In this document: positions 16,663 through 45,548 of the stretch, in pieces | Layout of the letters: every line of letters begins with the position of its first letter | How positions within the stretch are numbered: the first letter of the stretch is position 1 | Source: an uncultured Candidatus Saccharibacteria bacterium | GTDB taxonomy: Bacteria; Patescibacteriota; Minisyncoccia; UBA6257; GWB1-50-10 | Reading direction: 5' to 3' | Length of the DNA: 64,000 bases | Assembly (NCBI GenBank): GCA_964466475.1 | Contig: CAYXNB010000001.1 | Coordinates: 44,635 to 108,634 of the forward strand | Translations under genes and position numbers: made by a program | The notes under the pieces: generated by a model | What the model was told of the DNA's origin: nothing | Database searches by the model: none | Seen by the model: only the letters and a program-made list of their open reading frames with translations

Positions 16663-17578
16663 ACCATTCTATTGTTTTTCGGAGACCCTCTTCAAATCCT
16701 GTCCGCGCCCGAAAGCCGAATTCCCGTTCCGCCTTTGCTACATCCAGCATTCTTTTTGGCTGACCATCCGGCCTTGTCGGATTCCACCGTATTTTTCCCC
16801 GGAAGTTCATGTGTGCTGCTATGTTTTCCGCAAGATCTTTTATGGAGATTTCCATGCCGGACCCAAGGTTTACGGGATCGGGTTTTTCATACTTTTCCGT
16901 CGCGAGAACTATTCCTTCCGCCGCGTCTTCAACATACAAAAATTCACGCGTCGCCGTGCCGCTCCCCCACACCTCCACCTCCGCCTTTCCAGCTTCTCTT
17001 GCTTCGCGGATTTTGCGAATAAGCGCGGGAATCACGTGCGAGGAATCGAGGTCGAAATTGTCTCCGGGTCCATAGAGGTTGATCATAAGAAGATGGATAC
17101 CTGAAAACCCGTACTCCGCGTAATACGACCGCGTTTGTTCAAGCATCATTTTTTTCGCGATACCGTAAGGCGCATTTAATTCCTCCGGATATCCGTCCCA
17201 TAGAGATCCTTCGCGAAACGGAGTCGGACAATATTTCGGATAGGAGCAGACCGTCCCTATGCCCACGAATTTTTTTATTCCCGCCCTGTAGGATGCCTCC
17301 ACCATATTCAGCGCCATTGCCGCATTATCATAAAAAAGCACTGCCGGATGCTCTTTGTTGAAGCCTATGCCCCCGACCACTCCCGCGAGATGGATGACAA
17401 CATCCGCCCCGCCAACCGCGCGATCACAGGACTCTCTTTGTCGCAGATCGAATCCGGGGCGCCGGGGAACTCGAATATTTTCTTCTGCAACCCCCCGTTC
17501 GACGAGTTTTTTTCGCACATACGCGCCCAGAAATCCGGCTCCTCCTGTTACCACCACTTTTTTATCGTGCAGTATCAT
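16625..17578 (-). CDS. fcl: GDP-L-fucose synthase family epimerase/reductase (Fcl/ColC-like)
   Basis: VVVTGGAGFLGAY Rossmann, catalytic Y-x3-K (PYGIAKK), 317 aa; immediately downstream of gmd with ATGA overlap. Confidence 0.7.
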   Translation of the reverse strand: MILHDKKVVVTGGAGFLGAYVRKKLVERGVAEENIRVPRRPGFDLRQRESCDRAVGGADVVIHLAGVVGGIGFNKEHPAVLFYDNAAMALNMVEASYRAGIKKFVGIGTVCSYPKYCPTPFREGSLWDGYPEELNAPYGIAKKMMLEQTRSYYAEYGFSGIHLLMINLYGPGDNFDLDSSHVIPALIRKIREAREAGKAEVEVWGSGTATREFLYVEDAAEGIVLATEKYEKPDPVNLGSGMEISIKDLAENIAAHMNFRGKIRWNPTRPDGQPKRMLDVAKAEREFGFRARTGFEEGLRKTIEWYEAEIVSKKHGI

Positions 17579-18552
17579 CGTGTTTTCTCCTCTCTTACCC
17601 GCCGCACGTCCTCTTCGACCATCATGCGGACAAGATCTTCAAAGGAAGTTTTGGGCTTCCAGCGGAGATGCTTTTTCGCTTTTTCGATATCTGCAACGAG
17701 GTTCTCCGGCTCGTTTCTCCGCTTTTCTGTCATATTTTCCGAAACATACTTTTTCCAATCAAGCCCGAGCATTCCGAATGCCCGTTCCGTGAATTCTTTT
17801 ACCGTGTGAGTCCTGCCGGTCCCTATAACATAATCGTCCGGTTCTTTTTCCTGGAGCATAAGCCACATGGCCTCCACATAGTCGCCCGCGAATCCCCAGT
17901 CGCGCCTGGCGTTTAGATTACCCAGATTCAGCCCGCATTCCTTGCCGTACCTGATCCCTGCCGCGGCATGCGTAATTTTCCTTGTTACGTACATTTCATT
18001 CCTTCTCGGCGATTCGTGGTTAAACAAAATTCCGGTGCAAGCAAAAACTCCGTATGCTTCCCGATATATTCTTGTGAGCTGCAGCGACGCGGCTTTTGCG
18101 ACTCCGTAGACCGAAATCGGGGCATAGGGCGTTTTTTCGTTCTGAGGGAAAATTTTTGTCTTGCCGAATATCTCGCTTGATCCCGCTCCGAAAAATCTGC
18201 ACCCGCTTCCCTTTCGCTTCAGGGCGGCGAGGAATATCTGGGTTGCCATTGCGTTTATGGCGATTGTTTCCGTTTCTTCCTCCGGGCGCTGGGACTGCTT
18301 TTGGCCGGCCAGATGATAAATTTCATCCGGACGCACGGCGACCAGATTCTTCACGAAGTTTTCATCCCCCACGGATCCGCGACGCATCTTCACGCGACCC
18401 TCAAGGTGGCGTATCCTCCAAAATTCCGGACTTTTCCAAGAAATTTTTTGGCGCGTCACTCCTACTATGTCATATCCCTTTTTCAAAAGAAACTCTGCCA
18501 GATATGATCCGTCCTGTCCGGTCATTCCTGTTATTACCGCCTTTTTCTTCAT
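17575..18552 (-). CDS. gmd: GDP-mannose 4,6-dehydratase (copy 1)
   Basis: [55 protein letters not shown] hallmark Gmd motifs; start set at internal MKKKAVITG giving ATGA overlap with upstream gene. Confidence 0.85.
   Translation of the reverse strand: MKKKAVITGMTGQDGSYLAEFLLKKGYDIVGVTRQKISWKSPEFWRIRHLEGRVKMRRGSVGDENFVKNLVAVRPDEIYHLAGQKQSQRPEEETETIAINAMATQIFLAALKRKGSGCRFFGAGSSEIFGKTKIFPQNEKTPYAPISVYGVAKAASLQLTRIYREAYGVFACTGILFNHESPRRNEMYVTRKITHAAAGIRYGKECGLNLGNLNARRDWGFAGDYVEAMWLMLQEKEPDDYVIGTGRTHTVKEFTERAFGMLGLDWKKYVSENMTEKRRNEPENLVADIEKAKKHLRWKPKTSFEDLVRMMVEEDVRRVREEKTR
17831..17916. repeat. 86-bp tract 100% identical to 19782..19867 (gene-conversion tract between gmd paralogs)
   Basis: taatcgtccggttctttttcctggagcataagccacatggcctccacatagtcgcccgcgaatccccagtcgcgcctggcgtttag present in both gmd copies while flanking coding sequence is diverged. 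Confidence 0.8.
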
Positions 18553-19466
18553 GTGTTTTTTTCCCACCACCGGCACTCCGGAGCCCACTCCTTCATGCGG
18601 TTGTAGGTCAGACGAAGTCCTTCCTCTAAGGTGTGTCGCGGCTCCCAGCCGGTCAATTTTTTTACCAACGAAATGTCACATCGAAAATTCATCGGGCCGG
18701 ATACCTGCTTCCGAAGATCGCGTATTTTTTTTCCGGAAATTTCTCCCAATATATCCGCTATGCGCTTTACGCTGACCGATGTGCCAGTGCCCAGATTCAC
18801 AATTCCGGTGTATTCCGTATCCGTCAATTTTACGATTGCCTCCGCCGCATCGTCCAGATACAAAAAGTCCCGCACCGGATCCCCGTTCCAAATAGTCACC
18901 TCTTCCGGCCCTAGTATATTTTGCACTAAGGTCGGCACAAGGTCAGGACGTACAAGTTTTGTCGGTCCGTAAATGTTTGAGAATCGGATGACGATGGAGG
19001 GGACTCTGTCCTTATAAAAACACACAACCTCTTCCGACAGGTGCTTGCTAAATATATATTCGTTTACATATGGATTCGTCTCCTGACTTTCATCCACTGG
19101 CAATTTCATTTTCCTTTCATCATAGAGCAGTATGGTTGTGAAGCAGACAAATTTTTTTATGTTCCTTTTTTGAAAATAAAAGAGCGCCTTTTTTATAGGC
19201 AGAACGTTTTTTTCAATGCCGATAATCGGATCTCTGTTTATGACGTGGTGATCGGAACTTCCGATAAGAAATATCACCTTTTCTACCTCCACGCTGTCTA
19301 GCGCGCGGAGATCGTCCATGCTCTCCAGATGGATGTGCTCGTTTTTTACATAGTCCGGCGGCTTTGTTCTGCCCACCGATATAATATCGGGGTATTTTTC
19401 CAATATAATCGGCCCCAAAAATCCACTCCCTCCGAACAACAATGTTTTTCCCCCGTATTTTTTCAT
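18549..19466 (-). CDS. NAD-dependent epimerase/dehydratase (extended SDR), candidate GDP-4-keto-6-deoxymannose reductase (Rmd-like)
   Basis: LLFGGSGFLG Rossmann, Y-x3-K (YIFSK), 305 aa; sandwiched between two gmd genes. Confidence 0.55.
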   Translation of the reverse strand: MKKYGGKTLLFGGSGFLGPIILEKYPDIISVGRTKPPDYVKNEHIHLESMDDLRALDSVEVEKVIFLIGSSDHHVINRDPIIGIEKNVLPIKKALFYFQKRNIKKFVCFTTILLYDERKMKLPVDESQETNPYVNEYIFSKHLSEEVVCFYKDRVPSIVIRFSNIYGPTKLVRPDLVPTLVQNILGPEEVTIWNGDPVRDFLYLDDAAEAIVKLTDTEYTGIVNLGTGTSVSVKRIADILGEISGKKIRDLRKQVSGPMNFRCDISLVKKLTGWEPRHTLEEGLRLTYNRMKEWAPECRWWEKNT

Positions 19467-19470
19467 GTGG

Positions 19471-20505
19471 TTATAGCGTAATTCCGCTCTTTTTCAGGTC
19501 GTGCTCAAGCATCATTTTTACGAGTTCGCGGAAGGTCGTTTTCGGCTTCCACCCAAGATTCTCCCGCGCCTTTTTCGCGTCTCCCTGGAGCGCGTCTACC
19601 TCGGCCGGACGAAAGTACCGAGGGTCGATTTTGACGATAATCTTTCCGGTCCTTCTGTCCTTGCCAACCTCTTCCGTTCCCCGTCCTTCCCAGATTATTT
19701 CAAATCCCGCGAGACGGCAGGCCTCTTCCGCAAATTCCCGAACCGAGTGCGTTTCTCCGGTCGCGATGACGTAATCGTCCGGTTCTTTTTCCTGGAGCAT
19801 AAGCCACATGGCCTCCACATAGTCGCCCGCGAATCCCCAGTCGCGCCTGGCGTTTAGGTTTCCCAGATAGATGGCGTCCAGCTCGCCCTTTAATATTTTT
19901 GCCAGCGAAAGCGTGATTTTTCTCGTTACGAAATTCTCCCCCCTTCGCGGAGATTCGTGATTGAAAAGAATCCCATTGCACGCGAACAGCCCGTAACTTT
20001 CCCGATAATTCCTTGTGGCCCAGTATGCGTACACCTTTGAGACGCCATAGGGGCTGCGCGGATGAAAGGGAGTTTCTTCATTTTGAGGCGGGGGCGATGC
20101 GCCGAACATTTCGGAACTCGAGGCCTGATAGAATTTCGCCTTCGGATGATCGTGCCGCACCGCCTCCAGGATTCTCGTGGTCGCGAGCGCGGTCGCATTT
20201 CCGGTAAATTCCGGAACCTCAAAACTGACTCCCACGTGGCTTTGGGCCGCGAGGTGGTAGATCTCGTCCGGCCCCAGAGACTGAATGATACGATGCAAAG
20301 AGCTTGAATCGGTCAGGTCCCCATAGTGGAGTTCGATTCTATTCTCCCTATCATGTATGTCGGGGAAGAGGTGCTGAATCCGTTCGCGATTAAACGTGCT
20401 TACCCTCCGCACGATGCCGTGGACCTCGTACCCCTTTTCCAAGAGGAGTTCGGCAAGATACGATCCGTCTTGTCCGGTAATTCCGGTTATGAGCGCTTTT
20501 TTCAT
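19471..20505 (-). CDS. gmd: GDP-mannose 4,6-dehydratase (copy 2)
   Basis: [64 protein letters not shown]; 344 aa full-length Gmd. Confidence 0.88.
19782..19867. repeat. Partner of the 86-bp identical tract at 17831..17916
   Basis: See 17831..17916. Confidence 0.8.
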
Positions 20506-20522: not shown

Positions 20523-21800
20523 TTATTTTTCTATGACTTGAAACTCCGGCATGGGCACGATGAATTTACCTCCTCTGCCCAAAAATTCGCTCTCGCGCTC
20601 CCGAAATTCTTTCAAAAAATGCCAGGGCAGTATAAAAAAATAGTCCGGCATCGCCCTTCGCGCCTCTTCTTCGGAAATAATGGGTATCCAGGTTCCCACG
20701 GTCATTTTACCCCACTTCATGGGGTTGCGCTCCACCGCGCTTTTCACGCACGCGTTGTCCAGGCCGTAATACTGCAGAAGCGTGTTTCCCTTGGTCGAGG
20801 CGCCGTAGGCATATATCGTCTTTCCGCTTTCCGCCTCTTTTCGTATGAACGCGGATGTTGCTTCTTTTAGTTCGTCCACCCGCTCCGCAAATTCCCGGTA
20901 AATCGTTTTTTCGTCAAGACCGAGGTCTTTTTCCTTTTTTCGCATGGAGAGGACTCTGTCTTCCGCTCCCTCGCGCCTTCGGATCGACTTTCCTTCTCCC
21001 CGGACACGAATATACACCCGGAAGCTCCCTCCGTTTATATCGTTCGTTTCCACGTCAAACACCTCAAGACCGTGCCTTTCCAAAAGCCGCTCCAGGGACC
21101 TTAACGAATAATACTCCAGGTGTTCGTGGCAGATATTCCCCACTTCGTTCGTTTCCAACATGAGCGGCAAATAACTCATCTGGATAATAAACACTCCTTC
21201 AGGGTCCAGGCATTCCCGCGCTCCGCTTACAAAGGCGTTCGGATCATCCAGATCGTAAAACATAGCGATCGCGGTTATGATTTTCGCTTTTTTGTCGCCG
21301 AATTCCTTTTTCCACGCCGCAGCGGAAAAAAAATCGTTTATGATCCTGTCCGTTCCTTTTTCGTAATGCTTTTCCAGGTTTTTCGCAGGTTCGAATCCGG
21401 TTTTTACGATCCCTCCCCCCGCGTATCCCCGAAGGAGGGTTCCGTCATTTACCCCTATGTCCATCACAATATCCCCCGGTTTCAACGGGGCCATTTCTTC
21501 GGCGCGCCTTGCGATGCCGTGAAGTTCGTTCGTCATGGTTCTGTTCGTTCCGGAAAGATACCAGTACGTCCTGTAGAGCGCTTCGTTCGAGACCGTGTGC
21601 TTTAACTGAAGCAGTCCGCAACCGCCTCTTTTCTCTTCACACAGCACGAGCTCCAGAGGAGCCCGCACCCCCTCGTTTTTTTCCTCCTCCGACAAAAAAT
21701 CCGAAACATACAGATCTCCGAGAGAAAGGACGGGCAGGAGATCCGCGTTTCCGCACACCCTGCATTCCCGTATTTCCCGATATGGAGGGTTTTTGCTCAT
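20523..21800 (-). CDS. SAM-dependent sugar C-methyltransferase family protein (TylCIII/NovU-like; N-terminal Zn-ribbon + MTase + C-methyltransferase C-domain)
   Basis: N-terminal CRVCGNADL...C Zn-binding (Methyltransf_13-like), central [16 protein letters not shown] motif, 425 aa length typical of NDP-hexose 3-C-methyltransferases. Confidence 0.6.
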
Positions 21801-21836: not shown

Positions 21837-22862
21837 CTATCTTTTTCTTTTCTTTAATCCTTTCCATTTCCGCTCCTCAAAAAATATTTTGTACATCCGG
21901 TAGAGCAGAATGATAACCGGGCGCGGAAGCAAAAAAAGAGGCAGAGCGACCCAGCATTCGGGGTAACTCCAGTAGAGGCGGAGCATTGTAAGTCGCTTCC
22001 CTTTCGGGGTGTCCCATCCTCCGGCCCATCCGACCACCATTCCCCGCCATACCTGGCCAAAATTTTTGGCAAGCATGGTACGAACTGCGCGCCTGGAAAA
22101 GTTCTTTTCAAACGATTTTATCACGTCGTGGAAAACAACTCCGAACACGCGGAATCCGTTATTTTCTATCTTCCCCCCCTTCGTGGTCTCGGCGACTATT
22201 TCTTCTCTCGGGGTCGGATGGCATATCACGTACGGCCCTTTCAGAAAATAATTCTTTCCCCCGCTTACGATCGCGGTCAAAACCGGCATAAGCGAGGCGA
22301 ATCCGAATCCGATTGAAACTTTTCTTCCTTTTTCCACGCCGGGCAGCGCCGCTTCCCGTTTCGCACAAAAAGTGGAGAGGAGGCCCAGATTCGCCCCCAA
22401 AAGTTCCAAAACTTCGTTGTGATCTCGAAAAAAGCCCTCTTCCCTGTCCGGGATTGCGATAAGCCCGGAGTCCGCAATCATAAAATTCGCCCAAATGAAT
22501 GAGATTTCCGGGTGTGCGCGGATGATACGGAGTACGTGGGCTATCGCGCCCTCCTTCATCTCGTCGTCGTCGCTAAACCACCAGATATATCGTCCGGAGG
22601 CGTTTTCTATCAAGAAAAGATTCGCGGCGTCAAGGCCTATTTTTTCTCCATGTACATACCGGTACCTAATCCCGCTCCCCTCGAGGAGACTTCGGGTTAT
22701 TTTTTCCGTCTCGTCGTCCGGGCTGTCGTCACGGATTACTACCTCCACCTCGTCTGTTATCTGCGGAATAATGTTTTTCAGGCACTTCTCAAAATCCTTC
22801 GGACGATTGTAGGTTGGGATGCAGACGCTCAGGATCGGTTCGTTTTTCATGTTTTTCATCAT
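21837..22862 (-). CDS. GT2 glycosyltransferase
   Basis: ILSVCIPTYNRPKDFEKCL, VVIRDDSPDDET, WWFSDDDE; paralogous to N-domain of 13709..15442. Confidence 0.7.
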   Translation of the reverse strand: MMKNMKNEPILSVCIPTYNRPKDFEKCLKNIIPQITDEVEVVIRDDSPDDETEKITRSLLEGSGIRYRYVHGEKIGLDAANLFLIENASGRYIWWFSDDDEMKEGAIAHVLRIIRAHPEISFIWANFMIADSGLIAIPDREEGFFRDHNEVLELLGANLGLLSTFCAKREAALPGVEKGRKVSIGFGFASLMPVLTAIVSGGKNYFLKGPYVICHPTPREEIVAETTKGGKIENNGFRVFGVVFHDVIKSFEKNFSRRAVRTMLAKNFGQVWRGMVVGWAGGWDTPKGKRLTMLRLYWSYPECWVALPLFLLPRPVIILLYRMYKIFFEERKWKGLKKRKR

Positions 22863-22901: not shown

Positions 22902-23498
22902 ATGAAGCGCGTATATATTGCCTCATCCATGCCCATCGGGGAACGATGCCTCGGATTCGCGCGGGAACATCTGCCTGAGGGGACCCTTCTTGCCGACGAC
23001 ATGAATTCATGCGAAGTGTTTATCTCCGTATTCTATAACCAACTTATTACAAAAGAATTTATCAATTCTCGGGAGCAATGCTTAAACTTCCACGCTGGCA
23101 TTCTCCCCCAATATCGCGGTTCCGGCACCATCAACTGGGCCATTATAAACGGAGAAAAAGAAACCGGAGTAACACTCCATGAAATTGACGAAAAAATCGA
23201 CCACGGGGATGTGATTGAGGTTCGCTCCTTCCCGCTTGGGGATATGGACACGTGTGAGAGTGTGTTTAAAAAAACAGAAAAACTGGTGTTTCAAATGTTC
23301 TGTGATTGGTTTCAAAAACTCGCCCTTGGAAAATATACTGCTATCCCCCAGGACCATTCAAAAGCGCGCCTGTATTCCCGCGCGGATCTCCAAAAAGCGA
23401 AGGATCTGACCCCATATGTCCGCGCCTACCATCTGCCGGGCAAGGAGGCGGCCTATTATTACAACAGAAAGGGAGAAAAGGTCTATCTTGAATGGTAA
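22902..23498 (+). CDS. Sugar N-formyltransferase (formyl_trans_N family)
   Basis: Catalytic N-x-H...D signature NFHAGILPQYRGSGTINWAIINGEKETGVTLHEIDEKIDHGDVI; track ORF 22512..23498 trimmed to internal ATG because upstream part is antisense to the GT2 gene. Confidence 0.7.
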   Translation: MKRVYIASSMPIGERCLGFAREHLPEGTLLADDMNSCEVFISVFYNQLITKEFINSREQCLNFHAGILPQYRGSGTINWAIINGEKETGVTLHEIDEKIDHGDVIEVRSFPLGDMDTCESVFKKTEKLVFQMFCDWFQKLALGKYTAIPQDHSKARLYSRADLQKAKDLTPYVRAYHLPGKEAAYYYNRKGEKVYLEW

Positions 23499-23523
23499 TG
23501 GGTTATTCTGTATCATTCCATCC

Positions 23524-24627
23524 ATGAAAACTTCCACCCCCATCCGCATTCGGGTTTGCGAACCGGACATCGGCGAACTTGAGGTGCGCGCCGTTACGGA
23601 CGCGATCAAAAACACCTATATTTCCTCGGTTGCCCCTCCGGTCAAGGATTTTGAGGAGGCGTTTGCAAAATATTTCGGAGCGAAATACGCGGTAGCGGTC
23701 AATTCCGGGGGCTCGGCCCTTTTCCTCGCCCTGAAGGCGATTGGAGTCGGACCGGGAGACGAGGTGATCGTCCCCACCTTCACCATGATAGCAACCGCGG
23801 CCGCGGTGACCCACTGCGGCGCCCGGCCGGTATTCATTGATTCTTCCGCGGAGAGTTTCAACATGGACCCCGGGGCGATCGAGACGCTTATTACCCCCCG
23901 CACCAAGGCAATCATTCCCGTCCATCTTTATGGGGAGTCCTGCGACATGGATTCCATTATGGAAATAGCGGAAAGATACGGGCTAAAGGTGATCGAAGAC
24001 GCGGCCGAATCCCATGGCGCGAAATACAAAGGCAAGCTGACGGGCACGTTCGGCGTCGCCGGATGCTTTTCTTTTTACGCCAACAAGATCATGACCACCG
24101 GAGAGGGCGGCATGATCATTACCGATGACGACCACCTCGCGCATCGTCTGCGCCATATGCGCGGATATGATTTTGACGACTTGAAACATTTCTGGCACCG
24201 GACTATCGCGTGGAATCTTCGCATGTCCGCGCTCGGGGCCGCGCTTGGCGGAGCGCAACTCGCTCGCCTACCCGAACTTATCGCAAAGCGGCGCGCGAAC
24301 GCCGAGTATTACACGGAACGACTGAAAAGTGTTAAAGATCTCTCGTTTTTTCTGGAAAAACCTGACACGTTTTCCGTATTCTGGATGTACTCGCTTCTTG
24401 CGGAACGCAGGGATGAGCTTATGAATTTTCTCTCGAAAAACGGGGTGGAAACCCGGACGTTCTTTATCCCCATGCACCAGCAGCCGGTATATAAACAAAA
24501 GGGCAGTTTTCCCCACGCGGACCGGTACGCCGAACTCGGACTTTACCTGCCCTCTTCTTCCCATCTTTCGAACGAACAAAAAGACGAGGTAATTGCCCTT
24601 GTACGCGCGTTTTACGGCGCCTCCTAA
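23524..24627 (+). CDS. DegT/DnrJ/EryC1/StrS-family PLP-dependent sugar aminotransferase (perosamine-synthetase-like)
   Basis: FSFYANKIMTTGEGG with conserved Schiff-base Lys, VIVPTFTMIATAAAV, IPVHLYGESCDM; start at internal MKTSTPIRIRV. Confidence 0.8.
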   Translation: MKTSTPIRIRVCEPDIGELEVRAVTDAIKNTYISSVAPPVKDFEEAFAKYFGAKYAVAVNSGGSALFLALKAIGVGPGDEVIVPTFTMIATAAAVTHCGARPVFIDSSAESFNMDPGAIETLITPRTKAIIPVHLYGESCDMDSIMEIAERYGLKVIEDAAESHGAKYKGKLTGTFGVAGCFSFYANKIMTTGEGGMIITDDDHLAHRLRHMRGYDFDDLKHFWHRTIAWNLRMSALGAALGGAQLARLPELIAKRRANAEYYTERLKSVKDLSFFLEKPDTFSVFWMYSLLAERRDELMNFLSKNGVETRTFFIPMHQQPVYKQKGSFPHADRYAELGLYLPSSSHLSNEQKDEVIALVRAFYGAS

Positions 24628-24638
24628 ATATCTTCTTT

Positions 24639-25670
24639 TCAAAGCGCTCCCAATAGGCGCTCCAACTCCGTCCTCATTCCATATCCGTTCTCCACGCACC
24701 GCAGGCGGCCCGCCCGCCCCACGGCCTTTCTCGCGGCTTCGTCCGCGAGATATGTCCGTATTTTTTGGATCAACTCTTCCCGCGAACCGAAAAATTCCGC
24801 CTCTTTGCCTTCCCGGAAAAACTCCAGGTGCCTCCTGGTTCGTTCCCCCAGCATAAACCCGCCGCAGGCGGGAATTTCCACGCTTCTTGATGTTATTTCG
24901 TCCCTGTTTATCTTCCGTAAAAAACAAAGATTAATTTTTGTTCCGTTTATCGCTTTTACGTAATCCTCTCCCAGCACGGCTTCGTTTTTTACCTCCAGAT
25001 TTTTATGTCTCGCCCCGAAGCGCGCCCATCCGTTTCCCCAAACCACGATCCGGATTCCCTGCTCCGCGAGAGCGAGCATGGCGTCTGCCCGCTCCTTTTC
25101 CCATGTGCCGATAAAAGAAACCTCCGCGGAAAATTTTTTTATGTCCTCCTCCCGCATTTCCATCGGACGATGCAGCGTCTCGTCGTAGGTTTCGAGTGTG
25201 AGAAATGTTTTTTTCGCTCCCATGGCGAGGAGTTCCTTCAGGTTGTATTCTTTGGTGGTAAAGAGCATATCGTAGAGCGGCAGACATTCTTCGTAATACT
25301 TCGATTTGTTGTGAGGAGCGGCCATGTCGTCTTCGGAAAACGAAACAAATTTCGCCTTTGGCAGGAGCTCCCGCGCCCGCCGCAGGGCGCTTTTCCGTAT
25401 CATGACCCCTTTTTCTATCCATACGACTTCATACCCTCCCCTCTGCGCCTCTTCTTCCAATATCCTGTTTGCCCCGGCTCCGTCTTTCGGGAGACCAAGC
25501 TTCCACAATATCCTTTCCCCCACTCCCCCCTTCTCGCCCCTGCCCGCGCGGTCGGATATTTTGGTATGCGAATATGCCCGGACCTCGCAGCCGATATCCC
25601 GAAAGGCGCGCGAGCGCATAAAACTTCTTCCGTATTCGTTCAGGTCGCCGATGAAAAGTATGCGTTTCAT
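24639..25670 (-). CDS. CgeB-like / DUF3880 glycosyltransferase (Glyco_trans_1_2 C-domain)
   Basis: C-terminal IPACGGFMLGERTRRHLEFF...REELIQKIRTYLADEAARKAVGRAG pattern of PF13524; track ORF N-terminal 92 aa (Arg/Gly-rich) discarded, start at MKRILFIGD with ATGA overlap. Confidence 0.55.
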   Translation of the reverse strand: MKRILFIGDLNEYGRSFMRSRAFRDIGCEVRAYSHTKISDRAGRGEKGGVGERILWKLGLPKDGAGANRILEEEAQRGGYEVVWIEKGVMIRKSALRRARELLPKAKFVSFSEDDMAAPHNKSKYYEECLPLYDMLFTTKEYNLKELLAMGAKKTFLTLETYDETLHRPMEMREEDIKKFSAEVSFIGTWEKERADAMLALAEQGIRIVVWGNGWARFGARHKNLEVKNEAVLGEDYVKAINGTKINLCFLRKINRDEITSRSVEIPACGGFMLGERTRRHLEFFREGKEAEFFGSREELIQKIRTYLADEAARKAVGRAGRLRCVENGYGMRTELERLLGAL

Positions 25671-26821
25671 TTTTTTCCTGAAAGCCCGAGGGCTTTTCTT
25701 ATTCCCTCCACGTCTTTTTCGTGGCTGTATTCCCGTATGATCTTTTTTGACTCCTCGCCGAACGCCCTCCTTTCCTCCTCGTTTTCCGCGAGACGGCGCA
25801 CGTATTCCGCCAGACGCTCCGCGTTGCCGCACGGGAATACAAACCCGTTTTTCCCGTGACGCACCAGATCCGCCGCGCATCCCGCCATGTCCGAAACCAC
25901 GACAGGCAGGCCGGCGCACATGGCTTCGTTCACAACCAGGCCCCATGTTTCGCCCGCGCCCGAAGGAAGGATGAATATGTCAGATTCCGCGTACCAGTTG
26001 GGCAGCTCTTTTTGATTTTGGAAACCAGCGAAACGCACATGCTCCAATGAATTCCGCCGCACGTACTCTTCCATCTCTTTTCGCAGCGCGCCCTCCCCTA
26101 CCAGAGAAAGCGCGGGCAAAAGTTCGCGGGACATATCCCCCTTTTTTAATATGCGAAGCGCTTCCAAAATATCAAAAACCCGTTTTTTCGGTATCAACTT
26201 TCCCACAAAAAGTGCGGCGGGCCTGCCTTTATGTTTCCTCCTTTGCACCATAAAATTGGCGTTATCCACTGCATACGGGACAAAATGCATCTTTTCTTCC
26301 GGAACGCCGTAGGAGGCATAGAATTTTTTATTTTCCAGCCCGATACAGAGAACTCCCCTGCTTTTTTCAAACACCCGCCTCAAAACAATCTTTTTCATCG
26401 TCTGCTTCCAACCCGTTTTCAGGAGCTCCTGATTCAGAGGGCTTTCTCCGTGCCAGTACACCGGCGTTTTCCGCAAAAGCGCCGTAAGAAAAGCCAGCCA
26501 GTTGGTAAACGAATTCCATCCTGAAATAATGATCGCGCCGTACGCCCCCTTCCATATTTCCCGCGCAACACCCGGATTTATCTGCCCCCAGAAATTGCTC
26601 GACGGCCTTGGGGAAATATTTTTTAAAAATACGTGCCGGTATCCTCCGAGAAGCGGGGTGTCCCACTTCACTTTTTTTCCGAATTCCGGATCATAGGTTT
26701 CCTTTGCCCCGAAATCCCACGAGAAATAAACCGTGAGATCAATATCGTTTTCCGCTTCTAATCTGCGAAAGAGAGGGACTTCGTATTGTATGGCGTGCGA
26801 TTTCAGTATTGCTATTTTCAT
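25667..26821 (-). CDS. GT4 glycosyltransferase
   Basis: MKIAILKSHAIQYEVPLF N-terminus; E-x7-E (ETWGLVVNEAMCAGLPVV). Confidence 0.8.
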   Translation of the reverse strand: MKIAILKSHAIQYEVPLFRRLEAENDIDLTVYFSWDFGAKETYDPEFGKKVKWDTPLLGGYRHVFLKNISPRPSSNFWGQINPGVAREIWKGAYGAIIISGWNSFTNWLAFLTALLRKTPVYWHGESPLNQELLKTGWKQTMKKIVLRRVFEKSRGVLCIGLENKKFYASYGVPEEKMHFVPYAVDNANFMVQRRKHKGRPAALFVGKLIPKKRVFDILEALRILKKGDMSRELLPALSLVGEGALRKEMEEYVRRNSLEHVRFAGFQNQKELPNWYAESDIFILPSGAGETWGLVVNEAMCAGLPVVVSDMAGCAADLVRHGKNGFVFPCGNAERLAEYVRRLAENEEERRAFGEESKKIIREYSHEKDVEGIRKALGLSGKK

Positions 26822-26931: not shown

Positions 26932-27987
26932 TCATGCGTTTGCGAATTTTTCCACAAGGATTTGTACCCGTCCCTGAAAATGTTTTATGCTGTATATTGT
27001 GAGGCATTGTTCCCGTATTTTTTTTCTTTTTTCCGTGTCTCCTTTTTCGTTTTTGCGGACTACCTCCACGATGCCCCGCGCGATATCCGCCGGATCATCC
27101 GGATCCACAAGCGTGCCGAGTGCTCCGCCCAAAAGCGCCTCCCTGCATCCGTATCCGTCACTTGCCACAACCGGCACGCCGCAGGCGAGCGCTTCGATAA
27201 ACACAATCCCGAATCCTTCTTTTTTTGAGGGGAGCACGAATACGTCCGCGAGATTATAGAACGCCCTTCTGTCCTCGTTTTTTACATCCTCTACGCGCAC
27301 CACGCGCTTTTTCAGGTCCCTGTCTTTCAGTAAATCCTCCACCCGTTCATCCCTACCCCTACCTGCCAGACAATAAACGGCTTCCGGCACCTCCCGTATC
27401 ACGAGCGGCATGGCCCGGAGCACGCGGTCCTGCCCTTTTTCTTCTTCGGAGTTCAGGCGGGAAAGGGTGAGAATTACCTTTTTCCCCCGGAGGCCGAGCG
27501 CGGACACCAGATCTTCCCGCGGGGATTCTATAAAAAACAGGTCTTCGTCCACCGCGCTTGGGAGCATGAATATTTTATCCCGCGCTTCAGGCACCTGCGA
27601 AAGCGCGTGATTTTTCGTGTATTCGGAAATTACGATTATCTGTTCCGCCTCCCGCACGGCCCGGAGTTTCAATTTACTCTTGATTGCCATGGCTTCTATT
27701 CCATAGAGCGCGAGTGTGTACGGGATGCGAAGCGCGTTTCGCAGAAACAGCGCGATCGGAGAAAAATTAATATGCGCGGAGTGCAGCAGGTCCGGCCGCC
27801 GAAAAATCGCCTCGAAAAGAACGCGGAGCACGAAGAATCCCTTTGCCGTAATCCCCCTGCCGCGGAGTTCAATAAGGCGCACTTCGCAGCCGGAGGCACG
27901 GAGCGCCTTTAAAAAGTCTCTGTTATACTTTTCAATTCCTCCGACCGCGTTTACGTCGGCCGCGATAAAACATATTTTCATTGCCAT
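26932..27987 (-). CDS. GT4 glycosyltransferase
   Basis: MAMKICFIAADVNAVGGIEKY N-terminus, EGFGIVFIEALACGVPVV E-x7-E; track N-terminal extension discarded. Confidence 0.75.
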   Translation of the reverse strand: MAMKICFIAADVNAVGGIEKYNRDFLKALRASGCEVRLIELRGRGITAKGFFVLRVLFEAIFRRPDLLHSAHINFSPIALFLRNALRIPYTLALYGIEAMAIKSKLKLRAVREAEQIIVISEYTKNHALSQVPEARDKIFMLPSAVDEDLFFIESPREDLVSALGLRGKKVILTLSRLNSEEEKGQDRVLRAMPLVIREVPEAVYCLAGRGRDERVEDLLKDRDLKKRVVRVEDVKNEDRRAFYNLADVFVLPSKKEGFGIVFIEALACGVPVVASDGYGCREALLGGALGTLVDPDDPADIARGIVEVVRKNEKGDTEKRKKIREQCLTIYSIKHFQGRVQILVEKFANA

Positions 27988-28697
27988 GACATTCTGCCTT
28001 TTTTCACTTTCCTCTTCAAGCGAACGCTGAAGGCGAGCGTTCTTTTGATAAATTTCCATTGCGCTCCAAACCCGGTGTTCCAGCTCGATACTCCGTGGAC
28101 CCGCTTTCTGAAGTCCACCCGAAATCTTTTTACCCGATATCCTCTTTTTTTCGCGAGGAGGAGCGCGTAGAGATCGAGGGCAAAATCCTCGGGGGGATCT
28201 TCCCACGATTCAAAAAAACTTTTATGAAAGCAGTTCGGCTGGGCGTTTATGTCCCACAAAATTTTTCCGAAGAGCGCGCTCTCAAACACGCCCATTCCCG
28301 CGGTAAAAAACTTGTCCGTAAGCGGCCGGCCCCTTCTTTTCCCTTTTACGTAGGCGTTTTTCGGGTCTTCTTCCTGCTCCATGATGCGCATGGCGCGGAC
28401 CAGATCTTCGGGGTCGCACTGCAAATCCGCGTGCGTCCATATATACCACTCTCCTTTCGCGGCGCGGAGACCGGAGGCCACCGCCCTGCCGTATCCGGGA
28501 TGTTTTTCTTCAATACTCCGCGCGAAGGGAAATTTTTCCAGGATATTTTTCAGCACTTCGGCCGTTTCGTCTTTTGAATTATTGTCCACTAGGATCACCT
28601 CCGCGTCTTCCCTTCCCACGCTTTTTTCCAGACGCCCCAGGAGCGCGGGGATGTTTCCCGCCTCGTTGTAGCAGGGTATGACGATTGAATATTTCAT
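27978..28697 (-). CDS. GT2 polyprenyl-phosphate sugar synthase-like glycosyltransferase (DPM1/ArnC-like)
   Basis: MKYSIVIPCYNEAGNI, VILVDNNSKDET, short about 240 aa soluble GT2 typical of Dpm1/GtrB/ArnC; ATGA overlap with the GT-C gene upstream. Confidence 0.7.
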   Translation of the reverse strand: MKYSIVIPCYNEAGNIPALLGRLEKSVGREDAEVILVDNNSKDETAEVLKNILEKFPFARSIEEKHPGYGRAVASGLRAAKGEWYIWTHADLQCDPEDLVRAMRIMEQEEDPKNAYVKGKRRGRPLTDKFFTAGMGVFESALFGKILWDINAQPNCFHKSFFESWEDPPEDFALDLYALLLAKKRGYRVKRFRVDFRKRVHGVSSWNTGFGAQWKFIKRTLAFSVRLKRKVKKGRMSWQ

Positions 28698-30601
28698 ATG
28701 TCCTTGTTTCGGACAAGCATTTCTATCTTCGACCCGTATTCCCGGTCTTCTGTTATTTTCCATACTTTCCATCCCAGCCCTTCCAGCTCCCTCCGCAAAG
28801 CGTCGCCTTCCGCGAGATCGGAAATCATGACGAGGCGGATTCTTTTGTCTTTGTCTATCCCCCGCGCCCTGTTTCCCCCCTTTTCCACGAAATCATAAAT
28901 CGCCTTCTCCTTTTCGGTTTCTTCTATGCTCCAGCGGTATTGTATCTGGGGAAAGACACCGTAGGTTACTCCCGCGACATACACGCTTCCGGCATATCCT
29001 CCTTTTTTTGCCTCTTTCATCGCATCACGATACGGATGGGGAATCTCCGAGAGAACGTGGTATTCCCCCCTCTTTTTTATAATTTCCGAAAATGATACTT
29101 TCAGATCTTCTGCCGGAATATTCAGCCGCGGCAGATCGCGAAACGTCCGTATGTTAAAGATAATAAGGAGCGCCGCAAGCGACGCGAAGCAGCCCCTTCC
29201 CCACCTTCCTCTTCGCGCGCACTCCCGGCCGATCAGCGCGAGACCGAGTACCGCAAGAGGAGCCACGTATTCCGCCTGATATCTGCCGATCCCCCAGAGG
29301 CCCGGGTGTATGGAATAAAACATGTATGCTGAAACGGCCATAAGCGACACGATGCCTGCTCCCCGCCTCAGGTCCCTTGAAAAGAGAATCGCCCCTGCCG
29401 CCGCCGCCACAACCCACGGCAGGAAAACAGAGTTTTCTATCGCGTTCCATACGATTCCCGTGCGGATTGCGTACCAGACCCGCATGATTCCAATATCCGC
29501 GTGCGGGATGTCCAGCCCTCCCGCTTCCGGCACATACGATGCCGTTGTGCCGTAAAGCAAACTTTTTGCCGCAAATGGCACCATAAGGAGGATCGGCGCA
29601 AGGGTCATCATAATCCTCTTTATGTCCCGTTCTTTCGTCTTCCAGCAGTGCGCCGCGTACCATATACCGAGAGGGACTATTGCGCCCATTGCCGACTGCC
29701 GCATAAGCGAGGTAATCGAAAGAAGCGCGAACCACCAGAAAAATGCATTTTCTTTTTTATCTTCGTCTTTTTCCGAAAACGAAAGGAGGAGGGCGGCCCA
29801 AAAAAGGGCTGCCCAGACGGACTGCTCCACAATAACGCCCGCGTGCCAGAGTACCGGAATGGTGCCTACCGCAAACGCGGCAAGGCGCGCGCCCGTTTTT
29901 CCGGCGTACGCGCGCGCGTAGCGATACACAACGAACATGATCCCCAGAAGCGCCGCGAATGCGGCCAGCCGAAAACCGAGACTCGTCATGCCAAAGATCG
30001 TCCCTCCCAGCCAAAGCGGGACGAAACGAAGAGGCGGGTGGGTTCCTTCGCTTCCCCCGAGGAGTATGACCGCACTTCTCGCCGCAAGAAAGACGCTGCC
30101 CCACGCGACAACTCGCGTCCACGCGCTTCCTTTTTTCCCCAATTTCCAAAACATATACGCTCCGGCGGCTATCGCGATATTTACGAAAACAATCGCGTCC
30201 GCATAAGCCGCGTTTCCGAACCATGCCGGCATATATCCGGCGAGTGTCTGCACTATTTTTATACCGGGCAATTCGGATCCCCCCGCGTGCGAAAACGCGT
30301 CTCCGACCATGGGGCGAAGGAGCGCGTTCCACGAAAGCAAAACCATGCCTGCGACAAACAAGACCGCGCTCCACGCGTCCTCTTTTCGGAATATAAACGT
30401 TTTCACATATGTTCCCTTTTCCGCGTGAAACGTAAAAAAGACAAATATGCCGAGAAGAAGCACGGCAAGGAGCGCGTTCCAAACCGCACCGAGCCCTCCG
30501 GTCAGCGCGCCAAAAAGCCCGTAATTCCAAAAAAAGGCGAAGGCGAGTATTCCGAAAATATTTACGCGAACCGCGTATTCTTTTTGTCGCTCTATATTCA
30601 T
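28694..30601 (-). CDS. GT-C superfamily polytopic membrane glycosyltransferase (ArnT/PMT-like) with C-terminal soluble domain
   Basis: More than 12 hydrophobic helices over 470 aa followed by about 170-aa soluble domain; paired with DPM1-like GT2 as in ArnC/ArnT, GtrB/GtrC and Dpm1/PMT systems; start at MNIERQKEY. Confidence 0.5.
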   Translation of the reverse strand: MNIERQKEYAVRVNIFGILAFAFFWNYGLFGALTGGLGAVWNALLAVLLLGIFVFFTFHAEKGTYVKTFIFRKEDAWSAVLFVAGMVLLSWNALLRPMVGDAFSHAGGSELPGIKIVQTLAGYMPAWFGNAAYADAIVFVNIAIAAGAYMFWKLGKKGSAWTRVVAWGSVFLAARSAVILLGGSEGTHPPLRFVPLWLGGTIFGMTSLGFRLAAFAALLGIMFVVYRYARAYAGKTGARLAAFAVGTIPVLWHAGVIVEQSVWAALFWAALLLSFSEKDEDKKENAFFWWFALLSITSLMRQSAMGAIVPLGIWYAAHCWKTKERDIKRIMMTLAPILLMVPFAAKSLLYGTTASYVPEAGGLDIPHADIGIMRVWYAIRTGIVWNAIENSVFLPWVVAAAAGAILFSRDLRRGAGIVSLMAVSAYMFYSIHPGLWGIGRYQAEYVAPLAVLGLALIGRECARRGRWGRGCFASLAALLIIFNIRTFRDLPRLNIPAEDLKVSFSEIIKKRGEYHVLSEIPHPYRDAMKEAKKGGYAGSVYVAGVTYGVFPQIQYRWSIEETEKEKAIYDFVEKGGNRARGIDKDKRIRLVMISDLAEGDALRRELEGLGWKVWKITEDREYGSKIEMLVRNKDI

Positions 30602-31779
30602 GTATTGCGTTTTCGTAAAATCACGCGTCTCTGAAGCGCCAATACGTTTGGAGCCGCGCGCGTCAGGATCCCGTCTATTGCCCGCACTACCCGCAAAAGC
30701 GCGCGGGGCAGCGGAAGAGAAATCGTGTTCGCGATTACTCCTCCGGAGTTGAGGAAGAGGAGGCATTCCGCCCATTCCTGTTTTTCCATATCGAAATACG
30801 GAACGCCCTTCCTGAACTTTTCCGCGTCGTCAAACAGCAGATTCGGGATCGCGCAGTTTGCGGACCAGGGATCTTCAGGGTCGTTGCACACGGATTTCCG
30901 GTCAAATACGTCCACCTCAAACGAATACCCTTCGTGGCGCATAAGGCGGAGAATAAAGCGCATCAAAAGCGACGCGTTTATTTCCTGAACATAGAGCCGT
31001 CCTCCGGGTTTTAAAATCCTGGCCATTTCCTGAAAAAATTCAAGCGGGCGCGCAAGGTGGTGGATCATGTTGTTTGAAACCACGAAATCGAATTCCGCGT
31101 CCCGGAAGGGTGTGCGGAGCGCGTCCACGTTTTTCGCGTCGAGCCAGGGGTGGTCCGCGCAGTCGGTCAGAAGAAATGATTTCGCCCGTATGAATTCTTT
31201 TGCCACGCCCGAACCGCATCCCACCTCGATCCCGCGTTCATGTTCCCCGATCTGCGCGCCCATCCATCCATACCGCTCGGCGAGCAGGAACTTCAGGTTC
31301 GGAGACCCCGGTCCGTAAAAACGCTTTCGCGCGGCTTCCACGTCCCCTTCGTGCCGCATCCGGTTTTCCTCATGACGCGCCCGATACGGGGCTCGGAGAA
31401 CTCTCCCCATAAACGGCAAGTCGTGGAATACGATGTATTTTAAGACGATAAAATTTATCGTTGCCGCAAAGCCGGTTGCCGCGGCATAGGCGAAAAGAGG
31501 AGACCCCAATACGCGAAGAAGGACGGCGTTTACCGCCACGTTGCCTCCCAGGGTTATCGCGTAGAGCGCGATGAATTTGATTATTTCACGCCTTGTGATC
31601 TTTTTTCTGCCAAATGTCCAAAACGCGTTTAGCGCGTATGATGCCGCGATGCCGCACAGAAACGCGATTGCCTTTGCCGCCGAAGGGTCGAGTCGGGAAA
31701 AAAGAAAGGCATAGACCCCGGCGTCAATAGCGAGAACCGCGAATCCGGAAATAATGAATTTTCCCGCTTGATTTCTCAT
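30598..31779 (-). CDS. GtrA-like 4-TM domain fused to class I SAM methyltransferase
   Basis: N-terminal 120 aa four-helix GtrA-family topology (FIISGFAVLAIDAGVYAFLF...FIVLKYIVF); C-terminal IEVGCGSGVAKEF (motif I) and ILKPGGRLYVQE. Confidence 0.6.
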   Translation of the reverse strand: MRNQAGKFIISGFAVLAIDAGVYAFLFSRLDPSAAKAIAFLCGIAASYALNAFWTFGRKKITRREIIKFIALYAITLGGNVAVNAVLLRVLGSPLFAYAAATGFAATINFIVLKYIVFHDLPFMGRVLRAPYRARHEENRMRHEGDVEAARKRFYGPGSPNLKFLLAERYGWMGAQIGEHERGIEVGCGSGVAKEFIRAKSFLLTDCADHPWLDAKNVDALRTPFRDAEFDFVVSNNMIHHLARPLEFFQEMARILKPGGRLYVQEINASLLMRFILRLMRHEGYSFEVDVFDRKSVCNDPEDPWSANCAIPNLLFDDAEKFRKGVPYFDMEKQEWAECLLFLNSGGVIANTISLPLPRALLRVVRAIDGILTRAAPNVLALQRRVILRKRNT

Positions 31780-32601: not shown

Positions 32602-32661
32602 TTTTTCATACTATGCTTTTGCATCCATACTCACAAGATGTTTCTCTCTCATTCCGTGAAA

Positions 32662-38758: not shown

Positions 38759-38763
38759 TTCTC

Positions 38764-43191: not shown

Positions 43192-43223
43192 AGCGCCATC
43201 ATATCACAGGTTGCTACGACCTG

Positions 43224-45479: not shown

Positions 45480-45520
45480 ATGCCCTATTCTGCCAGGTTT
45501 TTTGTTTATCCTCAAGAAAT

Positions 45521-45548
45521 CCAAAAACCGCCCGAAGGCGGTTTTTGG
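45521..45548. terminator. Bidirectional rho-independent terminator hairpin (CCAAAAACCGCC-CGAA-GGCGGTTTTTGG)
   Basis: Perfect 12-bp stem with A/T-run flanks immediately downstream of the surface-protein gene stop (45588). Confidence 0.6.

Follow-up and report, generated by a model that had tools for sequence, protein, structure and literature searches.

The window analysed here, a stretch of 64,000 nucleotides, carries a glycan biosynthesis locus in which a formyltransferase gene (FT) sits beside a sugar aminotransferase gene (AT). The pair and the neighboring genes that bear on its function are as follows.

19471-20505, minus strand: Gmd, GDP-mannose 4,6-dehydratase (TIGR01472, 552 bits against a cut-off of 415)
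20523-21800, minus strand: C-MT, NDP-hexose C-methyltransferase (PF08421, PF13489 and PF08484; Zn-ribbon, SAM domain and C-methyltransferase C-terminal domain)
21837-22862, minus strand: GT2 glycosyltransferase, termed GT2_341 (341 aa; PF00535), divergent from FT at a distance of 39 bp
22902-23498, plus strand: FT, predicted compact sugar N-formyltransferase (198 aa; PF00551, N62/H64/D100 triad)
23524-24627, plus strand: AT, predicted PLP-dependent sugar 4-aminotransferase of the Per/LegC clade (367 aa; PF01041, Lys188)
24639-25670, minus strand: CgeB-like glycosyltransferase (PF13524, 97.5 bits; 343 aa from the internal start MKRILF, which was confirmed by translation), convergent with AT

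Organization of the FT-AT locus

Both ORFs of the pair are present on the plus strand as originally predicted, and AT starts 25 bp 3' of FT. The start of FT at 22902 was preferred over a 189-aa database call (P0001), since homologues align from the first methionine (MKRVYIASS versus MKIHIATS). The Formyl_trans_N domain of FT scores 80.7 bits with PF00551, above the gathering cut-off of 26.1, and covers only positions 78-172 of the profile. The N-x-H...D motif attributed to this small formyltransferase is intact: residues N62, H64 and D100 are invariant across 47 family members, with a spacing of 36 residues between the histidine and the aspartate. A second copy of FT is located on a 6.4-kb Logan contig.

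AT is a DegT protein of fold-type I (PF01041, 398 bits). Its Schiff-base residue K188 (FSFYANK) aligns with the catalytic lysine of the Caulobacter perosamine synthase (FSFFGNK), which agrees with the description of a lysine-containing DegT aminotransferase directly after the formyltransferase. Another DegT-family gene of the window (15439-16662) carries the motif STYVAHF, in which histidine replaces the lysine as in ColD/E1 dehydrases; we therefore assigned it as a ColD/E1-like dehydrase and rejected the idea that it might supply the amine in place of AT. As the only DegT protein that keeps the lysine, AT appears from its sequence to be the only true aminotransferase in the cluster.

Between positions 5972 and 57459 every ORF with a family match lies on the minus strand, save FT and AT, and the remaining plus-strand ORFs overlap minus-strand genes with strong Pfam matches. 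FT and AT are the sole plus-strand genes amid about 51 kb of minus-strand genes, which bears out their description as the only plus-strand island. A search around the island for inversion scars and mobile-element repeats returned only short, chance-level repeats; promoter-like matches were near the shuffle expectation, and terminator-like matches were moderately above it. Gmd had been placed upstream of the pair. A true Gmd does lie 2.4 kb away and is the nearest source of a keto-sugar, but it is on the opposite strand as the third gene of an operon (GT2, C-MT and Gmd) that diverges from FT, so it is not co-transcribed with FT and AT.

Family placement of the formyltransferase

FT was placed by score rankings, using the FT family profile against the PDB and Foldseek. 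Sugar N-formyltransferases head the profile ranking (QdtF, 109 bits; WlaRD, 104; HCAN_0200, 100; FdtF, 98), followed by ArnA (96-92), WbkC (91), Fmt (at most 79), PurN (at most 67) and PseJ (63). WbkC is thus not the closest characterized relative of FT. Of the first 23 Foldseek matches, 22 are sugar N-formyltransferases, the exception being ArnA at rank 21; the top fold matches are WbtJ, the Qui4N and Qui3N formyltransferases, FdtF, QdtF and WlaRD. The AF2 model of FT (pLDDT 97.3) has a shortened N-terminal subdomain and a C-terminal beta-hairpin formed by residues 160-198, which align with the Qui4N formyltransferases. The nearest full-length relative of FT, protein P0157, is 44% identical over FT residues 64-198 and matches only sugar formyltransferases in the PDB. 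These comparisons support the prediction that FT acts as a sugar N-formyltransferase, being closer in sequence and fold to these enzymes than to Fmt or PurN.

The opposite reading would make FT a housekeeping enzyme, either the Met-tRNA formyltransferase Fmt or the purine biosynthesis enzyme PurN, that sits in the cluster by chance. Its scores with the respective models are far under the equivalog cut-offs (TIGR00460 for Fmt, 86.5 bits against 201.5; TIGR00639 for PurN, 53.2 bits against 150.1). With only 198 aa, FT also lacks the C-terminal tRNA-binding domain of Fmt, since it ends at residue 198 and has no PF02911 match. Finally, the gene is embedded in glycan loci beside a sugar aminotransferase in both bacteria and phages. 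We give a housekeeping role almost no credence and regard it as effectively refuted. Clustering with Fmt or PurN, the outcome named beforehand as contradicting the original prediction, was not observed, sugar formyltransferases ranking first by both profile and fold.

Two further searches were less discriminating. Nearly all of the 94 nearest non-compact relatives of FT matched the NCBIfam models of ArnA, Fmt, Qui4N formyltransferase and PurN alike. In PHROGs, FT matched only a generic cyanophage PurN-like family, and nothing was retrieved for the glycosyltransferases or C-MT.

The compact clade and its conserved neighborhood

Judged by sequence, FT falls into a small and sharply delimited compact clade without about 42 N-terminal residues, which appears to be new. 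The catalytic histidine occupies position 64 in FT versus 106 in P0157, about 42 residues (one beta-alpha unit) being absent before it. At 50% identity the clade amounts to about 30 clusters among 1.84 billion representatives. Its members come from Patescibacteria-type MAGs and from about 25 contigs of uncultivated phages, in which the clade is unexpectedly common. The link of the cluster in the window to Patescibacteria, as computed here, is its synteny with two of the homologous loci, L005 and L008. Our search of the literature on sugar formyltransferases, perosamine and Patescibacteria found no description of the compact clade, which has no characterized member and in which FT represents a minimal enzyme.

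The pairing of FT with AT is conserved, with a strong AT match in 23 of the 31 FT loci. FT is 52-56% identical to its orthologues in bacterial loci, whereas AT is only 38-44% identical to the aminotransferases of the homologous loci; AT orthology across loci is therefore loose. Both flanking glycosyltransferases recur. Orthologues of GT2_341 (46-53% identity) are present in all five bacterial loci; in L003, L007, L008 and L050 they are located upstream on the opposite strand, while in L001 the best-matching orthologue is downstream and another GT2 occupies the divergent position. GT2_341, a conserved neighbor of FT, is a candidate for the enzyme that transfers the formamido sugar. A reading of this protein as ArnC-like was dropped, as it has no match to the ArnC model PRK10714. 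The CgeB-like glycosyltransferase is a conserved partner of the FT-AT pair: its orthologues (48-54% identity) are found downstream of AT in L001, L003, L006, L007, L008 and L050, and PF13524 proteins also occur in the phage cassettes.

Gmd orthologues (49-69% identity) were identified near FT and AT homologues in L003, L008, L050, L061, L065, L069 and L071-L074. In L008 Gmd is the immediate neighbor of FT, in L003 it is two genes from AT, and in the phage contigs (L061, L065, L069 and L071-L074) it adjoins or overlaps AT or FT. In L001, L007 and about 12 viral loci its place is taken by another SDR that is only 22-28% identical to Gmd. The compact clade is hence not tied to Gmd, an observation that speaks against a GDP-linked pathway, as does the position of Gmd in the window between C-MT and a ColD/Fcl-type set of dideoxy-sugar genes, which it could serve instead.

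Proposed pathway and alternative products

In comparisons with the PDB, AT scores highest with the perosamine synthase Per (305 bits), its closest characterized relative; every other structure scores at most 286 (QdtB, 220; ArnB, 172-175), and PseC-type structures are also well below Per. AT is 46% identical to the Caulobacter GDP-perosamine synthase (3bn1; E-value 8e-90, 349 aligned residues). Among NCBIfam models the best matches of AT are the LegC and PseC families, both below their cut-offs (343 bits against 420 for LegC); this shortfall with LegC, like the loose orthology of AT, is a point against the GDP-linked pathway. Per and the LegC of C. jejuni, both characterized relatives of AT, use GDP-sugars. 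The comparisons support AT as nearest to GDP-perosamine synthase, from which specificity for GDP-4-keto-6-deoxymannose and a manno product are predicted.

With enzyme families, catalytic residues, fold and a conserved gene neighborhood established, the most likely role of FT and AT, and one we hold with reasonable confidence, is to aminate and then formylate a GDP-linked 6-deoxy sugar in a Wzx/Wzy-type surface-glycan cluster. Gmd, from which the 4-keto-6-deoxy substrate is presumed to come, would convert GDP-mannose to GDP-4-keto-6-deoxy-D-mannose. AT, with PLP bound at Lys188 and an amino donor, would then form a GDP-4-amino-4,6-dideoxyhexose, the simplest product being GDP-perosamine. FT would transfer the formyl group of N10-formyl-tetrahydrofolate to the C-4 amine via Asn62, His64 and Asp100, giving a GDP-4-formamido-4,6-dideoxyhexose of the N-formylperosamine type. 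Either the GT2 encoded at 21837-22862 or the CgeB-like enzyme encoded at 24639-25670 could add this formamido sugar to the glycan. In this scheme we infer the GDP carrier, the C-4 position, the manno configuration, the acceptor, and C-methylation or its absence. A sugar formyltransferase, a Per-like aminotransferase and a true Gmd nearby support the gmd-per-wbkC type of logic that had been put forward for an N-formylperosamine-like sugar, and the WbkC-type context is present, one locus combining Gmd with a Per-type aminotransferase. The dTDP-Qui3NFo or Fuc3NFo product offered as the other option finds no such backing: neither RmlA/RmlB nor a 3,4-ketoisomerase turned up, and AT resembles Per, not QdtB (305 versus 220 bits).

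AT and FT might instead use a non-GDP 4-keto sugar made elsewhere, either a UDP-4-keto-pentose (Ara4FN-like product) or a dTDP- or UDP-4-keto-6-deoxyhexose (Qui4NFo-like product). The genes that an Ara4FN-like option would draw on are a UXS/ArnA-C-like SDR (40346-41293), a polyprenyl-phosphate GT2 and a GT-C protein (28694-30775). The nearest solved structures to FT are indeed the dTDP-Qui4N and dTDP-Qui3N formyltransferases and ArnA, and in L001, L007 and many viral contigs FT and AT are paired with a non-Gmd SDR. In addition, the SDR of the window is weakly UXS/ArnA-C-like (107 and 99 bits) and lies beside a UDP-glucose-dehydrogenase fragment, and the window carries a set of GT2, PMT_2 GT-C and GtrA. 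However, the scores of AT with ArnB and QdtB are far below that with Per, RmlA and RmlB were not found, the scanned ORFs contain no ArnD-type deformylase domain, GT2_341 does not match the ArnC model, and the distance to the UXS-like SDR is about 16 kb, compared with 2.4 kb to the true Gmd. We consider a non-GDP substrate improbable.

A PseJ-type role, in which FT would formylate UDP-4-amino-4,6-dideoxy-L-AltNAc toward Pse5Ac7Fo or a legionaminic analogue (a 7-formamido nonulosonic acid), gains some interest from the LegC and PseC families being the best NCBIfam matches of AT. Besides the scores of AT below both cut-offs, PseJ reaches only 63 bits in the profile ranking versus 109 for QdtF, and no NeuB/PseI synthase, CMP-transferase (CTP_transf_3), PseB or PseG was detected among window ORFs of at least 180 aa. 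This makes a nonulosonic acid product very unlikely.

A variant of the preferred GDP-linked pathway concerns C-MT, whose best PDB matches are the 3-C-methyltransferases MtmC (7e-64), TcaB9 and KijD1. C-MT may belong to the FT-AT branch, where it would 3-C-methylate the 4-keto intermediate, or to the neighboring dideoxy-sugar branch. In the former case it would act on GDP-4-keto-6-deoxymannose before transamination, and the otherwise unchanged pathway would yield a 4-formamido-4,6-dideoxyhexose with a C-methyl branch, which as an N-formyl sugar would be akin to kansosamine and sibirosamine. The homology of C-MT to the three enzymes, which act on NDP-4-keto-6-deoxy sugars, extends over the full length, and the C-MT gene lies directly between Gmd and the divergent point of GT2 and FT. 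The set seen in the window, Gmd, C-MT, AT and FT, is found again in L003, in L050 and in the viral contig L061. L050 and L061 have no other SDR or ketoreductase in the fetched flanks (10 kb; L050 is cut by the contig end), which would leave AT as the only enzyme there able to process the methylated 4-keto product. The missing reductase is weak evidence, since enzymes of the MtmC type are able to carry out the 4-keto reduction themselves. Against the variant, Gmd occurs with FT and/or AT but without C-MT in L008, L071-L074, L065 and L069, so the methyl branch is not obligatory for the FT clade; moreover, in the window and L003 the C-MT gene forms an unbroken series with those of an SDR, a Gmd paralogue, an Fcl-like enzyme and a ColD-like enzyme, and could serve those. 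We view the branched sugar as possible, with the balance of opinion against it. No such sugar was found described in the literature on formamido and 3-C-methyl sugars; should C-MT act in the FT-AT branch, a new branched amino sugar would result.

On a broader and slightly more doubtful reading, which we put forward as speculation, the compact clade marks a mobile glycan cassette common to Patescibacteria-type and phage loci, and the product in the window, L003, L050 and L061 is an undescribed GDP-linked 3-C-methyl-branched 4-formamido-4,6-dideoxyhexose. Such a cassette would consist of Gmd, a Per-like AT, the compact FT and a CgeB-like glycosyltransferase, with or without the 3-C-methyltransferase. 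As a marker, the compact clade is convenient for spotting phage-borne glycan cassettes, and it offers enzymology a compact scaffold.

Comparison with known N-formyl sugar systems

On the surface of Brucella, Francisella and other pathogens, N-formylated 4-amino-6-deoxy sugars act as immunodominant epitopes. The present locus points to the same chemistry in a glycan cluster that shares synteny with loci of Patescibacteria/Saccharibacteria MAGs. Nothing here overturns current understanding; the two new points are the compact FT clade and the four loci in which C-MT accompanies Gmd, AT and FT, such that the product could be C-methyl-branched.

Among formyltransferases of other systems, PseJ of Anoxybacillus kamchatkensis (6ci2, 6ci4) and the F domain of LgrA differ from FT by their low similarity (63 bits), and the scanned ORFs of the window include no pseudaminic-acid genes; PseJ reportedly acts on a UDP-sugar. 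The ArnA(N)/ArnB/ArnC system for UDP-Ara4FN differs in that AT is nearer to Per than to ArnB (305 versus 172 bits), in that neither a fused decarboxylase nor an ArnD deformylase was found in the window, and in its ArnC, which GT2_341 does not match.

The small dTDP-Qui4N formyltransferases, WbtJ (4nv1), VioF (4yfv), Rv3404c and the enzymes of P. congelans and Shewanella (6v33, 6v2t), are the top Foldseek matches of FT (TM 0.71-0.76). They are 4-N-formyltransferases of 4-amino-4,6-dideoxyhexoses and share their catalytic core with FT, residues 37-195 of which align with residues 80-246 of 6v33, hairpin included. They are, however, about 240-250 aa long with a full N-terminal subdomain, whereas FT lacks about 42 residues ahead of the catalytic histidine and is only 17-23% identical; and their substrates are dTDP-linked, while a GDP-sugar is predicted for FT.

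The closest parallel in pathway logic is the gmd-per-wbkC system of Brucella for GDP-N-formylperosamine (WbkC, 5vyr and 5vys), which likewise combines Gmd, a Per-type PLP aminotransferase and an Asn/His/Asp formyltransferase that uses N10-formyl-tetrahydrofolate. This logic is ordinary and of textbook kind; at the present locus it would be carried out by an unusually short branch of the formyltransferase family.

The formyltransferase-aminotransferase island and its glycan cluster

A formyltransferase (FT) and a DegT aminotransferase (AT), originally predicted to form a pair at 22902-24627, were found exactly there. All other ORFs with a family assignment between 5972 and 57459 lie on the minus strand; thus FT and AT are, as predicted, the sole plus-strand genes among the family-assigned ORFs of this region.

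Features of the island and the surrounding cluster
11004-12473, Wzx
12445-13716, Wzy
15439-16662, minus, second DegT protein
16625-17578, minus, Fcl-like enzyme
17575-18588, minus, paralogue of Gmd (312 bits, under the equivalog cut-off of 415)
18549-19466, minus, SDR beside Gmd
19471-20505, minus, GDP-mannose 4,6-dehydratase (Gmd)
20523-21800, minus, NDP-hexose C-methyltransferase (C-MT)
21837-22862, minus, 341-aa GT2 glycosyltransferase
22902-23498, plus, FT (198 aa; Formyl_trans_N is the sole Pfam match)
23524-24627, plus, AT (367-aa DegT/DnrJ/EryC1 enzyme, 398 bits)
24639-25670, minus, CgeB-like glycosyltransferase (PF13524), likely start at 25670 (MKRILF)
27978-31779, minus, 264-aa GT2 (weak ArnC/DPM-type matches), 693-aa PMT_2 GT-C and GtrA-methyltransferase fusion
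41857-45524, O-antigen-ligase-like proteins

The Formyl_trans_N match of FT (80.7 bits, cut-off 26.1) covers profile positions 78-172 only, corresponding to residues 35-128. Since 46 homologues align with FT from its first methionine, 22902 is the better start; by this alignment the public gene call of 189 aa begins nine codons too late (22902-22929). The anticipated N-x-H...D motif is represented by N62, H64 and D100, which are invariant across the FT family and show the canonical His-to-Asp spacing of 36 residues. The lysine expected in AT is K188 of the FSFYANK segment, aligned with the catalytic lysine of the Caulobacter GDP-perosamine synthase (Per). This enzyme is also the best solved relative of AT (305 bits, 46% identity over 349 residues), followed by an unnamed sugar aminotransferase (286 bits), QdtB (220), WbpE (213) and ArnB (172-175). 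Among curated models, AT scores highest with the LegC family (343 bits, under the cut-off of 420). The original prediction had also placed Gmd upstream of the pair: Gmd is indeed nearby (TIGR01472, 552 bits versus a cut-off of 415), yet within an operon diverging from FT and comprising GT2, C-MT and Gmd.

The genes around the pair constitute a Wzx/Wzy-type glycan cluster with many GT2 and GT4 enzymes. The mechanical ORF of the CgeB-like glycosyltransferase (24639-25946, 435 aa) has an Arg/Gly-rich N-terminal extension of 92 aa that overlaps the upstream GT4 gene. The 27978-31779 set resembles a three-component Gtr-like system that would glycosylate through a polyprenyl phosphate; L001, a Saccharibacteria MAG locus, conserves its GT2 (56% identity) and its GT-C (38%). 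The second DegT protein carries STYVAHF in place of the aminotransferase SFYANK, with His replacing the Schiff-base Lys, and its matches to the E1 and ColD dehydrases are nearly as good as that to Per. On these grounds it is a ColD/E1-like PMP-dependent 3-dehydrase, not an aminotransferase, and no cluster enzyme other than AT can supply FT with an amino sugar. The 15439-19466 set (ColD-like, Fcl-like, Gmd paralogue and SDR), kept as a whole in locus L003 with 48-74% identity, resembles a distinct GDP-3,6-dideoxyhexose branch whose product may be C-methylated.

Several other features were observed in the window. Two short minus-strand ORFs, 8286-8993 (235 aa) and 39546-40349 (267 aa), have only partial matches to the nucleotide-sugar dehydrogenase family; the former is conserved in L001 and L007 (63-64% identity) and is therefore more likely to be a genuine truncated paralogue than a pseudogene. 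An unusual minus-strand run at 31786-39549 encodes two MobA-like nucleotidyltransferases, an FkbM methyltransferase, a class II aldolase-like protein, a 706-aa protein with a C-terminal phosphoribulokinase/uridine-kinase domain, a HAD hydrolase and an HD protein; together these may form an as yet unrecognised route to a sugar nucleotide or phospho-sugar. A group I intron (RF00028, 84.4 bits, 59186-59437) lies inside an apparent tRNA gene (59148-59459, minus strand), at which ARAGORN called no tRNA; its flanks, GCCGCGGTAGCTCAGTGGTAGAGCGCAGCCCT ... GAAGAGGCTGGCGTCGGGGGTTCAATTCCCTCCCGCGGCA, when joined would give a CU-GAA-GA anticodon loop, possibly that of tRNA-Phe.

Identity and compact architecture of the formyltransferase

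FT was placed by score and fold rankings. It reaches no NCBIfam equivalog cut-off, scoring 92 and 89 bits with ArnA-type models, 86.5 with Met-tRNA formyltransferase (Fmt), 64 with Qui4N formyltransferase and 53 with purine GAR transformylase (PurN). PDB chains were ranked using a profile built from 47 FT family members.

PDB chains ranked by the FT family profile (bits)
QdtF, 109
WlaRD, 104
HCAN_0200, 100
FdtF, 98
ArnA chains, 96-92
WbkC, 91
Qui4N formyltransferase chains, 85-78
Fmt chains, at most 79
LgrA F domain, 70
PurN chains, at most 67
PseJ, 63

In a Foldseek search with the very confident AlphaFold2 model (pLDDT 97.3), the first 23 matches are sugar N-formyltransferases except for one ArnA chain, with WbtJ and the Qui4N enzymes of P. 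congelans and Shewanella at the head. The fold alone therefore excludes PurN, without separating Fmt from the sugar enzymes. Fmt is rejected by domain content and context: FT has no C-terminal tRNA-binding domain, its C-terminal region, a beta-hairpin in the model, aligns with Qui4N formyltransferases, and its genomic setting is that typical of a sugar enzyme. A housekeeping role as Fmt or PurN, the grouping that would have contradicted the original prediction, is thus scarcely credible. A PseJ-like nonulosonate route is very improbable; PseJ ranks last among these chains, and no nonulosonate synthase was found among the window ORFs scanned. The same ORFs yielded no RmlA, RmlB, 3,4-ketoisomerase or ArnD-type deformylase.

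The segment matching FT residue 37 begins at residues 74-89 in canonical relatives and at residue 38 in PseJ. P0157 (244 aa; PDB matches to sugar formyltransferases only), the closest relative of full length, shares 44% identity over FT residues 64-198 and has its catalytic His at position 106, versus 64 in FT; the FT model has four rather than five strands ahead of the catalytic strand. It thus appears that in the compact clade a beta-alpha unit of about 42 residues has disappeared from the N-terminal subdomain. A pattern-based scan of 1.84 billion representatives yielded only about 30 full-length clade members at 50% clustering, all scoring at least about 177 bits; ordinary formyltransferases follow after a sharp fall, at no more than 137 bits. 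Two MAG loci (L007 9986-11005; P0005, P0022) encode a compact FT with a C-terminal fusion of about 140 aa that has no precomputed Pfam match and is GNAT-like by eye (…VFVKRKGYATELV…).

Homologous bacterial and viral loci

Five bacterial loci with flanks of at most 10 kb were compared: L001 (on the same contig as L005), L003, L007, L008 (a Patescibacteria MAG) and L050. In all five, FT is the lone plus-strand gene, with a GT2 divergently upstream, a Per-like AT adjoining and convergent with FT, and a CgeB-like PF13524 glycosyltransferase downstream. The divergent GT2 is orthologous to the 341-aa window enzyme in four loci (46-53% identity); in L001 the ortholog lies downstream and a different GT2 is divergent. 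L003, L008 and L050 carry a true Gmd, which scores 538 bits and lies two genes away from AT in L003 and immediately adjoins FT in L008; a different SDR takes its place in L001 and L007.

Full- or near-full-length FT homologues (37-48% identity) are encoded by 24 IMG/VR contigs, and two further metagenomic contigs carry FT together with the phage hallmark genes rIIB, SU10 adaptor and Acb2. Among these viral or phage-like contigs (L051, L052, L054-L077; near-duplicates L054/L055, L064/L070, L071/L072 and L073/L074), FT usually belongs to cassettes with DegT, Gmd or another SDR, CgeB-like glycosyltransferase, GT1 enzymes and methyltransferases. The SDR is a Gmd ortholog (49-57% identity) adjoining or overlapping AT or FT in seven loci, and in L051 and L061 the cassette end, the DegT aminotransferase, lies beside an SU10-adaptor-like gene. 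These cassettes suggest that phages encode the synthesis of a glycan containing a formamido sugar.

Proposed pathway and known systems

Enzyme families, catalytic residues, fold and gene neighbourhood are established for the pair, and we consider a Gmd-AT-FT-glycosyltransferase pathway for a formamido sugar fairly probable. Gmd would form GDP-4-keto-6-deoxymannose, AT would aminate C-4 using PLP on K188, FT would formylate the amine from N10-formyl-THF via N62, H64 and D100, and a conserved neighbouring glycosyltransferase would install the sugar. We infer its nucleotide carrier, regiochemistry, stereochemistry and acceptor. A GDP carrier is indicated mainly by the recurrent adjacency of Gmd, AT and FT, and a non-GDP substrate for AT and FT is unlikely here; the loci with other SDRs show that the compact clade as a whole is not confined to GDP sugars.

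Within the favoured pathway, C-MT, whose closest structures are the 3-C-methyltransferases MtmC, TcaB9 and KijD1, might methylate the 4-keto intermediate before transamination. The Gmd, C-MT, AT and FT set is found again in L003, in L050 and in the viral contig L061, with no other reductase visible within the flanks of L050 and L061; however, several Gmd-bearing FT loci lack C-MT, which in the window and L003 is contiguous with the dideoxy-sugar genes, and we regard this branched variant, the leading alternative, as rather doubtful.

The proposed formamido-sugar pathway follows textbook logic; only two aspects are non-routine, namely the distribution across phages and Patescibacteria and the possibility of a branched sugar. 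The pair is a sugar N-formyltransferase and Per-type aminotransferase branch in which the compact FT architecture is uncharacterised. The suggested analogy with Brucella gmd-per-wbkC holds for how the pair works, whereas FT is not a WbkC ortholog. Structurally closest are the small dTDP-Qui4N formyltransferases, from which FT differs by the missing beta-alpha unit; only PseJ and the LgrA F domain share its short N-terminus.
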